IMG/VR virus record: IMGVR_UViG_2531839664_000027 | From: a virus | Lineage: Duplodnaviria > Heunggongvirae > Uroviricota > Caudoviricetes | Strand: one strand, 5' to 3' | Length of the DNA: 64,000 nucleotides | In this document: positions 1-3,000 of the stretch, in pieces | Layout: the number at the start of each line of letters is the position of its first letter | How positions within the stretch are numbered: the first letter of the stretch is position 1 | Made by a program: the position numbers

Positions 1-3000
1 TTGGCACTGAGCGACACCAAACTACGAGGCCTCTACGGAAAACCCTACTCTGGCCCTGCTGAAATCACCGATGGTGACGGGTTAAGTGTGCGGATTACTC
101 CAGCAGGAACTATCACGTTTCAGTACCGTTATCGCTGGAATGGTAAGCCAGTACGTCTTACTGTCGGGCGCTATCCGTCTACTTCACTGAAGGACGCGCG
201 TGTTATCGTCGGTGAGATGCGCGCATTGTACATGAAGGGAGTTAACCCTAAAAATTATTTTGCGCCCAGTGACGGCGAACTGACATTAAAAGAATGCCTG
301 GATCAGTGGTGGGATAAGTATGTTACTGATCTGAAACCCAATACACAGACGCTTTACAGATCCGTCGTGTACAACACTATGTACACACAGTTTGAAGGCT
401 CGCCAGTTGCCAGTATCCCAGTATCGGCATGGGCTCGTTTCTTTGACAAACAAGAAAGCCTCAACAAGAAAAAGGCTCGTGTTTTGTTGTTACAACTGCG
501 TTCAGTTATTAACTGGTGTATCAGCCGCCAGTTAATCCCATCATGCGAATTACTCAAGCTTAGTGTTAAGAATATTGGGAAAAAACCAGATGTAGGGAGT
601 CGTGTACTTACCTATACGGAACTGGCAAAAATTTGGCTGGCGCTGGAGAACTCAAAAGTAGTTACTTCCAACAAGGTGTTACATCAATTGCTATTGCTAT
701 GGGGGGCCAGACTTTCTGAGCTACGTCTCGCGACAGCCAGTGAGTTCAACATGGAAGATCTGGTCTGGACAACCCCAAAAGAGCATTCAAAAATGGGGAA
801 TATTATCCGGCGTCCGGTATTCACTCAGGTTAAACCTTATATCGAGAGATTGCTTAATGCGGGTTTTGATGTGCTATTCCCCGGGCAGGAAATAGATAAA
901 CCTATTGATCGTTCGTCGGCTAATTTGTACATGAAAAAGTTAAGGGAGAAAATTGATATTCCTGAATGGAGAACGCATGATTTTAGGCGTTCTCTGGTAA
1001 CGAATTTATCTGGGGAAGGAATTATGCCCCACGTCACTGAAAAAATGCTGGGGCATGAACTTGGGGGAGTTATGGCCGTGTATAATAAACACGACTGGTT
1101 GTCGGAACAGAAAGATGCGTATGAGTTGTATGCTGATAAAATTTTCTGGCACGCTAAACAGCTCGGTTAATTCCTCCGGCTTTAAGCCATTGTTCAACGG
1201 CCTGACGACTATATCGCGCCGGATGAGTAAGTACTGGTTCCGGGAATCCGTGTTTTTTTCGCAAATTATACAAAGCTGTGCGCCTTTTTTGTAACAAATC
1301 AGAAACCTCTTTTTCGGTCATTAAGTTGACTTCCATAGTATGCGCTCCTTTTCTACATGTATTTCAACAGCCTGATATCATCCACGCCCTAAAGGACGTG
1401 GATTCCCGCTACGTTCACTCTGACAATTCGTTGATCAAGTCACGGTATTTATTCAGTTCTTGCAACGCCTTACATGCACCCTCCCATCGTTTCTGTTTCC
1501 GCCCGGCGCGGCGCGCTTCTTTCCGTGATTTACGTAGCAGGTCACCTATAATGTTGTTCTGCACTGGCTGAACTGGCTGAACTGGCTGAACTGGTTGAAC
1601 TGGTTGAACTGAATCAATATCTGTTTTGCTTCCAACTCCCTCTACTGCCTGCCAGATGCCGTTTTTTACCTTTACGATCCCCTGGTTTTTCAACTTCCAC
1701 AGCGTATCAATGACGTCATTCAAATCAATATTGAGACCTTTAGAAATGCTGTCGGCTGTTGCTTTTCCTAATTTGTTCAATTCTGTGAGTACGGCGTTCA
1801 TTTTTTTCTCCTGATATTTTAATGTCGGTGGGGGTGTTATGCGATTGGTGAGGTGTCAGCTTCTTCTACCAGCTTTTCCAGTTCATCCAGCTTTCGGGAA
1901 AGAATTTCACCAAACAGATGAAGTTCTGTATCTGCTGTGATCGGGATCGGAACAAAGCGTATTCCACTTCTGGCAAGTTGATTTGCGATTTCCAGGCACT
2001 GCCTTAATTCAACTGGTGATGCCTTTGTCAACGTCGTTTTTTCGCTCATTGGTTTTCTCCAGAAATTTAACAATACCCGGAACCATCTCAATGGATGGTG
2101 TTCCGCATTGGTTACCCCAGACATCAAATCCATGCGAGGTGTGACGGGCGAACAGTTCTATCCGGGGAACATCGCCAAGAAGTTGCACAAGTTTTTCTCG
2201 CGCCATATCCGGCTTGCGGGAGTGATCAAGGCGCGGTGCAGTGAATGACTGGATTATTCCGGCGTTAATGCGTTCAGGCAGATTTCCTTTCACTGCAAAA
2301 AGGCAGTCTTCGCTGTTAGCGCGAGTGGTGCTACCCATTTCCCGTATTGTTCTGTTTTGAGCATGTAGGTATTGGCAATGCGACCAACCTTGTTAGCGGA
2401 TATTTTGAGTTGTGATCCAACTTCTGACGCCGAATAGTAATGTTCATTGATCATCGGTAGCGGGATTACGTTAGCGCCTACAACGGGATTAACCAGGCTG
2501 GCGGCAACGACCTGTTTAGCTTCAGGGGCAAGGTTGGGGAGGAAGCCGAAAAGGTCTTTCATTGTATCGACGGTCATTTTCAGCGCCCGTGCTTTACGGA
2601 ATTCCTCAAGGCCGTTAGTCGAATATTTCGAGGTGATTTTTTGTTGCAGTTGCTGTTGCATTGACTCCAGTTGATCGACCAGAGAACGGCGGACAGCTTT
2701 AGACTCACGCGCGGCGACGCGGAGGGCTTGTTTGTAGGTCATGGAGATAGTTTCAGATGTTGTGTTGTTTAATTTTTGCACTACGAAAATTTCGTAGTAC
2801 TCACCATCCAGTTCATCCTTAACTCTGGCAATAAAATCATTATTGCGAACAGGTTTTTCGCCGCACAGTTTCCGCGCCTCATTAACCATCTTTAACAGCA
2901 TCTGGCTGTCGATTGTTGCAGCCGGAAACGAAGACTGATTTGCAATATTGTTAATCATGCTTTTGTCCTTTTCAGATAAAAGAAATCCCCGCGAGTGCGA

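Follow-up and report, generated by a model that had tools for sequence, protein, structure and literature searches.

A 9-bp in-frame tandem repeat of variable copy number in a DUF1627-family gene of Stx2a-converting lambdoid phages

The integrase region of a Shiga toxin 2a (Stx2a)-converting lambdoid prophage carries, inside a small gene of the DUF1627 family, five tandem 9-bp units, and this locus raises the question whether their number changes among related prophages, by which process it would do so, and what such changes would mean for the encoded protein. The prophage is the IMG/VR virus record IMGVR_UViG_2531839664_000027 (Caudoviricetes), and the whole stretch of DNA that was analysed, 64,000 nucleotides long, is referred to here as the window. 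The initial annotation had proposed a slipped-strand hotspot at which protein length would change in steps of three residues without frameshifting. Comparison across related prophages showed that the repeat number is not invariant but ranges from about 1 to 10 units, and every length difference corresponds to whole 9-bp units. The array is an ordinary length-variable coding repeat that involves no new mechanism, and we regard it with good confidence as an in-frame variable-number tandem repeat (VNTR) that changes by replication slippage within a length-tolerant linker.

Both direct reading and Tandem Repeats Finder bear out the five units. The program reports a period-9 array at 1559–1611 (5.9 copies, 95% matches, score 85; consensus CTGAACTGG), and the plus strand from 1564 to 1608 reads as three copies of CTGGCTGAA followed by two of CTGGTTGAA, flanked on both sides by a degenerate partial unit (CTGCA before, CTG after). 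Exact self-matches at lag 9 extend to 23 bases, whereas 200 simulations of the window under a first-order Markov model reached 11 at most (mean 7.8), and the motif CTGGYTGAA occurs nine times in the window (1.18 expected), five of these occurrences being the array itself. The array lies far beyond chance expectation, and the repeat is real. On the coding (minus) strand, two copies of GTTCAACCA precede three of GTTCAGCCA and a final GTGCAG, which together encode the peptide S-(VQP)5-VQ-NN, preceded by D, with (VQP)5VQ at residues 65–81. Since S(VQP)5VQ is equivalent to VQ(PVQ)5, the (PVQ)x5 of the initial annotation denotes the same array one residue later (P67–Q81); its span of 1564–1608 is exact for the array but offset by one base from the codon register, in which the VQP units occupy 1565–1609, a difference that is immaterial.

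The array is plausibly covered by one gene only, the minus-strand open reading frame (ORF) listed in Table 1. A plus-strand ORF at 1278–1571, which ends in the array, was set aside for want of supporting evidence. The product matches the family phrog_1888 over its entire length (E = 1.5e-70, residues 1–128 onto profile positions 1–118 of 118), a family of unknown function, and passes the Pfam model DUF1627 (PF07789) narrowly, with 30.2 bits against a gathering cut-off of 28.1 (E = 4.4e-7). This second match is partial: residues 71–124 align to model positions 99–153 of 155, the C-terminal third, and the Pfam scan gave no match of the window protein to positions 1–98, the internal winged-helix part. 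RefSeq relatives are annotated as 'DUF1627 domain-containing protein'. The description of the locus as a small gene next to the integrase region holds insofar as only a 60-residue excisionase-like gene intervenes, with the qualification that the gene lies on the minus strand.

A scan of IMG/VR with a back-translated pattern recovered 38 loci, 35 of which span the array, and among these 35 the number of full units is 1, 2, 3, 4, 5, 6, 8 or 9. The alleles belong to two families, which use different codons for one VQP peptide. Family A, the type found in the window, has the linker EGVGSKTDIDS and units GTTCA[A/G]CCA, and comprises loci with five units (3 loci), four (4), three (2) and two (2). 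Family B, with the linker AREVDKKPNIA[S/P] and units GTGCAGCCA, is represented by one unit in 3 loci, two in 4, three in 5, four in 3 and five in 3, and also includes larger arrays of six (3 loci), eight (1) and nine units (2). The ORF is intact in 34 of the 35 loci, and all 34 alleles are in frame and differ by exact multiples of 9. A frameshifted family-B allele was encountered at locus L036 (IMGVR_UViG_2751185961_000012, gene 3001–3368); here the frame shifts within the linker, before the array is reached (KKPNIA turns into KNQISPQ...), which reflects either a pseudogene or a homopolymer sequencing error.

Complete genomes and phage records extend this range. In a sample of 60 out of 304 positive complete E. 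coli genomes, match lengths step by 9 bp, and the extremes read by sequence were 7 (family A, SCU-104), 9 (O157:H7 NE 1092-2) and 10 units (strain 10_253). Four units were present in each of the 11 sampled O157:H7 genomes of this type, and five in the four sampled O121 genomes. Among phage records, match-length steps of 9 bp correspond to 2 to 6 units, with the 4- and 6-unit alleles confirmed by sequence, and the database representative P0011 contains a single PVQ only. Counted by CAA- and CAG-type units, the window array is CAA2 CAG3, and arrays elsewhere are CAA1 CAG4, CAA3 CAG2, CAA2 CAG1, CAA1 CAG1 and CAA1 CAG6. As both blocks vary, events must have occurred at several positions of the array.

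The most direct evidence for recent change comes from phages that are otherwise identical to the window. The record LC616034 has 4 units (CAA2 CAG2); along about 21.9 kb it agrees with the window at every aligned base, and apart from the array only an insertion sequence is placed differently. LC616060, with 6 units (CAA2 CAG4), matches the window perfectly for 10.7 kb and has two mismatches in the 5.6 kb that follow. Because neither change is accompanied by a substitution within these zero-mismatch stretches, one clonal lineage displays both the loss and the gain of one CAG-type unit, which supports the proposed hotspot. Likewise, a 9-bp gap is the sole difference over 2,338 bp between the window and the 4-unit loci L004–L007. 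Copy-number change is recent, recurrent and bidirectional, and it is faster than base substitution in the flanking DNA. The small-terminase gene of this phage provides a comparator, an in-frame array of 12-bp units; in 40 sampled phage records that array has two length states only (440 or 428 nt for the probed segment). As this second array is far less variable, the DUF1627 array must be either unusually mutable or unusually tolerated.

The position of the repeat in the protein was read from a predicted structure. An AlphaFold2 model, built from a 20-sequence alignment (mean predicted local distance difference test score, pLDDT, 76.7; predicted template modelling score, pTM, 0.39), has an N-terminal domain with helices at residues 2–11, 16–23 and 27–39 and a hairpin formed by strands 43–46 and 49–52. 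The predicted linker, residues 54–83, has no secondary structure in the model, with pLDDT below 50 at residues 56–73 and means of 57, 40 and 51 for the 10-residue blocks covering residues 51–80, and the repeat lies entirely inside this low-confidence segment. It is followed by helices at 84–118 and 120–127 (pLDDT 90–93). This C-terminal helix is the most conserved part of the family and nearly invariant in nucleotides between the two allele families.

The family is small. An exhaustive profile search of 1.84 billion representative proteins detected 19 relatives at E ≤ 1e-3, none of them functionally annotated, and a word-indexed protein search returned 16 close relatives only, all from E. coli. 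In the 19 family representatives the distance between the N- and C-terminal modules ranges from about 10 to more than 150 residues, and the separating segment contains a second winged helix or other low-complexity proline-rich runs such as PTPTPTPTP in P0031; the linker of the window protein aligns to long unrelated inserts of distant members. Since the modules of its relatives vary in separation, with a second winged-helix domain between them, the window protein is a short form that consists of winged helix, linker and DUF1627 C-terminal helix, and the (VQP)n array occupies the naturally length-variable junction of the family. The long-form DUF1627 (PF07789) and phrog_630 proteins, of about 240–260 residues, have in common with it a winged helix at the N-terminus and a basic helix at the C-terminus (...ANRELRRAK..VQKWERVCAALRELNKHRDI...), and in them, too, a variable low-complexity segment precedes the C-terminal module. 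They cover PF07789 positions 1–155, whereas the window protein lacks the middle (second) winged helix and is gapped there in the alignment, and, unlike in the long forms, the (VQP)n array is confined to a short E. coli/Shigella Stx-phage clade. Proline-rich interdomain linkers made of short repeats are known from the X-Pro repeats of TonB. The window protein likewise has a predicted non-globular, proline-containing tripeptide repeat between two folded modules, and its length varies among homologues; a spacer role would follow from analogy only.

The fold offers little guidance to function. Foldseek searches against PDB and BFVD gave generic winged-helix matches only (E ≥ 0.009, none at E ≤ 0.001), the best E value of a PDB profile search was 7e-4 without any stretch that passed on its own, and the helix-turn-helix (HTH) matches in NCBIfam, like those to TrmB/TFE HTH models in Pfam and NCBIfam, remained below threshold. 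The generic winged-helix resemblances from fold and sequence searches include AspA, MarR, TFE and Z-alpha. Z-alpha domains have as hallmarks an Asn and a Tyr in the recognition helix and a Pro-Pro-x-Trp wing. They were among many generic Foldseek matches (E 0.014–0.05, template modelling score normalized to the target about 0.8) and appeared in the PDB profile search with E values from 7e-4 to 0.15, the best match again without a passing stretch. On visual comparison two residues line up, the Trp of the wing (W50, invariant across the family) and an aromatic residue of helix 3 (W35), but the Asn and the Pro-Pro do not. The resemblance to Z-alpha domains, which bind Z-DNA or Z-RNA, was considered and not adopted, and is kept as a lead only. 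Binding of DNA or RNA by the protein is presumed from the fold class and the basic helix.

Replication slippage would add or remove whole 9-bp units, and each event would lengthen or shorten the VQP linker by three residues and never turn the gene off; because the unit length is a multiple of three, no on/off phase-variation switch is involved. The array would form part of a disordered proline-rich linker that joins the N-terminal winged helix to the basic C-terminal helix and that tolerates about 1 to 11 PVQ copies, and because of this tolerance the polymorphism is most likely neutral or nearly so. Slippage is favoured because the changes comprise whole units, include gains as well as losses and affect several positions of the array, and also because the arrays are internally homogeneous yet differ between the families and are larger in the perfectly repetitive family B, whose perfect arrays attain the greatest sizes. 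Homogeneity within arrays together with the difference between the families (GTTCARCCA versus GTGCAGCCA) is concerted evolution, as expected of slippage. Several points weigh against this account. Unequal recombination between arrays would yield identical products, and the only ground for near-neutrality is the wide range of lengths that the linker accepts. Both families retain the VQP peptide although their codons differ synonymously, so that the sequence, and not a mere linker, could be under selection. The alignment behind the AlphaFold model is shallow (20 sequences, pTM 0.39), and the term 'disordered' is based on low pLDDT. Finally, at least 40 LC616xxx phage records all have 5 units, and the array is not hypermutable on outbreak time scales; the hotspot has to be qualified in that most members of this one clonal phage lineage have an identical number, the departures being one phage with 4 and one with 6 units.

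Among the other processes that could generate the differences, sequencing or assembly artefacts might be suspected, as draft data can mis-assemble short tandem repeats. The arrays do not exceed 96 bp and remain below typical read length, the differences are all exact multiples of 9 with intact ORFs, and numbers are consistent within lineages in complete genomes (11 O157:H7 at 4, four O121 at 5). Because complete genomes give such lineage-consistent values, an assembly artefact is excluded, and the chance that the differences are spurious is negligible. Unequal homologous recombination, between sister chromosomes or co-resident lambdoid prophages, could also change the copy number, and the array could then be a mosaic junction for module exchange. 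In its favour, families A and B differ at many nucleotides upstream of the array and inside it, but hardly at all beyond its 3′ end; locus L019, for instance, differs from the window at two positions in gene nt 244–387 and then at none until about nt 920, and in some A/B pairs the differences vanish through xis into int. In addition, the hybrid alleles L002, L003 and L043 combine a family-A N-terminus with GTTCAG-CAC at the 3′ end, and some genomes contain two copies of the locus. Such an edge of divergence suggests either that the repeat is a recombination (mosaic) boundary or that the C-terminal helix is strongly conserved, and a conserved C-terminal module would explain it equally well. Moreover, gains and losses of single units at zero flanking single-nucleotide polymorphisms (SNPs) can arise without a partner for exchange, the locus is single in most genomes (median 1), and a repeat tract of 45–90 bp is short for RecA-dependent exchange. 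We consider recombination improbable as the source of the copy-number changes, though it may have a part in them. When 1415–1608 of the window was compared with L019, L022, L025, L028 and L031, the A and B alleles had 0–3 differences in the 144 nt from the 3′ end of the array to the stop codon, and this near-identity persists even where the downstream DNA is a different module.

Two further explanations ascribe a function to the repeat itself. Under adaptive tuning, the length of the linker would determine the reach, or the geometry, of the winged helix relative to the C-terminal helix; phages that differ in copy number would then inherit different regulatory behaviour, for example in excision or induction set-points, and selection would keep the variability as a graded 'evolutionary knob'. 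In its favour, the gene belongs to the early-left operon and directly precedes an excisionase-like gene, both allele families retain the VQP peptide although their codons diverge, the variability far exceeds that of the small-terminase in-frame repeat in this phage, and the copy number is characteristic of lineages (4 units in sampled O157:H7, 5 in O121). Lineage-characteristic numbers are, however, predicted equally by neutral drift at a moderate mutation rate, the range from 1 to 10 has no obvious preferred value, the unit types differ by two synonymous sites only, which makes weak evidence of selection, and the literature search on DUF1627 turned up incidental mentions only. Adaptive tuning of this kind appears doubtful, and a more specific version is distinctly improbable: that the DUF1627 protein assists in regulating the neighbouring excision/integration module or early-left transcription, with a heritably adjustable (VQP)n linker that sets how far the winged helix reaches from a partner bound by the C-terminal basic helix, and that the repeat number provides a graded, mutable set-point for prophage stability. 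If this version were true, the repeat number would set Stx-phage induction differently among lineages of enterohaemorrhagic E. coli (EHEC). A role at the DNA or RNA level, either as an iteron-like protein-binding array or as a structured RNA, with the peptide as a by-product, is very improbable. Direct repeats close to a site-specific recombination module, and a nearby sub-threshold Rfam match to HgcC at 1359–1481, off the array, could be cited in its favour. Yet a range of about 1 to 10 copies is hard to square with a fixed binding architecture, the 9-bp spacing is out of step with the DNA helical repeat, and the A and B units differ at synonymous positions only, so that the peptide is conserved and not the DNA. 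Furthermore, the motif is not significantly dispersed (four scattered extra copies, with up to six in shuffles), the single-strand fold is no better than that of shuffles (z = −1.38), no promoter-like or terminator-like site overlaps the array, and the Rfam scan placed no family on it. The HgcC match, to an archaeal family, lies on the minus strand and scores 26.7 bits (gathering score 50; E = 0.0038); it covers the 3′ end of the DUF1627 gene together with the gap between this gene and the excisionase-like one, and is most likely due to chance.

Related kinds of coding repeat are known. In phase-variable simple-sequence contingency loci, such as the tetranucleotide repeats in surface genes of Haemophilus and Neisseria, slipped-strand mispairing likewise acts on a coding tandem repeat. 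The DUF1627 array differs from them in that its 9-bp unit lies inside the coding sequence and keeps the frame, so that length changes are graded and no ON/OFF switching results. The array is of one kind with the coding VNTRs used for multiple-locus VNTR analysis (MLVA) of EHEC (O157-3, O157-9, O157-34, EH157-12, EHC-1 and others), which also change by whole units among close isolates; it varies between lineages and occasionally within one. Judged by the 40 primers of the Japanese 17/18-locus (Izumiya) and PulseNet schemes (PMC10062581, S5 Table), it is not among the standard EHEC MLVA loci: near 1400–1800 no primer matches within three mismatches, and the only primer matches in the window, each with three mismatches, are at 31284, 49370 and 50304. 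Because the array is located on a mobile Stx phage and was detected in 304 of the 5,426 complete genomes, typing by it would apply to the phage and not to the chromosome. Its practical value is slight but real: as a phage-borne length marker it separates Stx2a phages that are identical in SNPs (4, 5 and 6 units with 0 substitutions over 10–22 kb), and it could sharpen Stx-phage subtyping or flag repeats that were wrongly collapsed in assemblies. For the protein, it indicates that the segment between the modules of a family member restricted to Stx phages tolerates large changes in length, which helps to set the domain boundaries. Searches of open-access papers and preprints found none describing this polymorphism or any function of DUF1627, and nothing on a 9-bp VNTR in Stx2 prophages; the 9-mer unit, queried in six registers, returned unrelated primer matches only. 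Among the papers listed, mentions of DUF1627 are incidental, one of them as a gene often near the PasA/PasC small RNAs.

The identity of the phage is evident from the surroundings of the repeat. Positions 1337–1900 are 100% identical to phages PA8, PA28 and vB_EcoP_phi346/349, to a long series of records named 'Stx2a-converting phage' (LC616033–LC616077) and also to O121 E. coli chromosomes. The locus is present in 187 of 50,697 phage records, almost all of them Stx phages of E. coli or Shigella, and where it occurs in complete E. coli genomes it is chromosomal in every case. The DUF1627 gene belongs to the early-left region, where it directly precedes the excisionase-like gene and is separated from the integrase by that gene alone, and RefSeq relatives are annotated in the matching order int, xis-like, DUF1627, DUF1382 and MT-A70, with the DUF1382 gene syntenic with the DUF1627 gene in every relative inspected. 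The true start of the integrase lies 75 nt upstream of the window, as judged by comparison with VT2phi_272 and by the annotation and alignment of L040. The integrase and excisionase-like genes point towards each other and share 17 nt at their 3′ ends (1154–1170).

Table 1. Coordinates in the window of the repeat, its gene, the predicted protein segments, the neighbouring genes and the comparator repeat.
Feature	Position	Strand	Basis or remarks
Tyrosine integrase, 5′ end cut by the window edge	1..1170	+	Pfam Phage_integrase, Arm-DNA-bind_3
60-aa excisionase-like HTH_17 (AlpA-type) protein, downstream neighbour of the DUF1627 gene	1154..1336	-	ORF, Pfam, PHROG
Gene of the short-form DUF1627 / phrog_1888 protein, 128 aa, ATG start	1415..1801	-	ORF, Pfam, PHROG
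Predicted C-terminal long basic helix, DUF1627 module RKSRKEARRAGRKQKRWEGACKALQELNKYRDLINELSE, residues 84-127/128	1418..1552	-	AlphaFold, conservation
Predicted disordered interdomain linker holding the repeat, residues 54-83	1553..1642	-	Low pLDDT; family alignment
9-bp tandem array	1559..1611	-	Five full units 1565-1609 and terminal partial GTGCAG 1559-1564; (VQP)5VQ, residues 65-81
Predicted N-terminal winged helix-turn-helix domain, residues 1-53	1643..1801	-	AlphaFold, pLDDT about 80-84
DUF1382 family protein, 70 aa, upstream neighbour	1837..2049	-	Pfam; synteny
12 bp x 4.4 in-frame repeat, KIDHEIDHKTDHEIDHD, in the small-terminase ORF 34861-35667	34997-35049	+	Tandem Repeats Finder

Several other features of the phage were observed. 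A 109-residue ORF at 2009–2338 on the minus strand is only the C-terminal remnant of an MT-A70 methyltransferase (Pfam positions 93–172 of 172); relatives have this gene intact (627 nt), with other genes after it. Homology to VT2phi_272 ends at 2338 and is taken up again some 2.9 kb later in the VT2phi_272 sequence, from which we conclude that a deletion or mosaic joint fused the MT-A70 remnant to an anti-repressor-like gene (2290–2958). Within the replication-initiator ORF of the Phage_rep_O family (16753–17700, plus strand), two 12-bp repeat blocks (CCGCACATGAAG/A) of about 3.7 copies each are found at 17180–17304; they encode peptides of the AHEAA/AHDAA type and by position resemble the origin iterons inside the lambda O gene. 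The ORF at 17697–20090 (plus strand, 797 residues) encodes a DnaB-like replicative helicase in which a LAGLIDADG/homing-endonuclease segment splits the N- and C-terminal helicase domains, an arrangement that indicates a putative intein-containing phage helicase.

Two copies of one IS3-family insertion sequence (HTH_Tnp_1 orfA and rve orfB) are present at 5155–6418 and 53945–55608, the second with a perfect 400-bp tandem duplication (53945–54744) that doubles orfA. Number and position of these insertion sequences vary between the otherwise identical sister phages LC616034 and LC616060. A repeat with a period of 45 bp at 45521–45627 (GCAGGCCCA..GGA..AAAGGAGAA..GGT...) encodes Gly at every third codon, looks collagen-like (Gly-X-Y) and presumably belongs to a tail-fibre gene. 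Lastly, a 30-bp unit, TTGCGGGTAACTTTAAACAACTCACAAAAT, occurs about twice at 23344–23420 with 78–85% identity.

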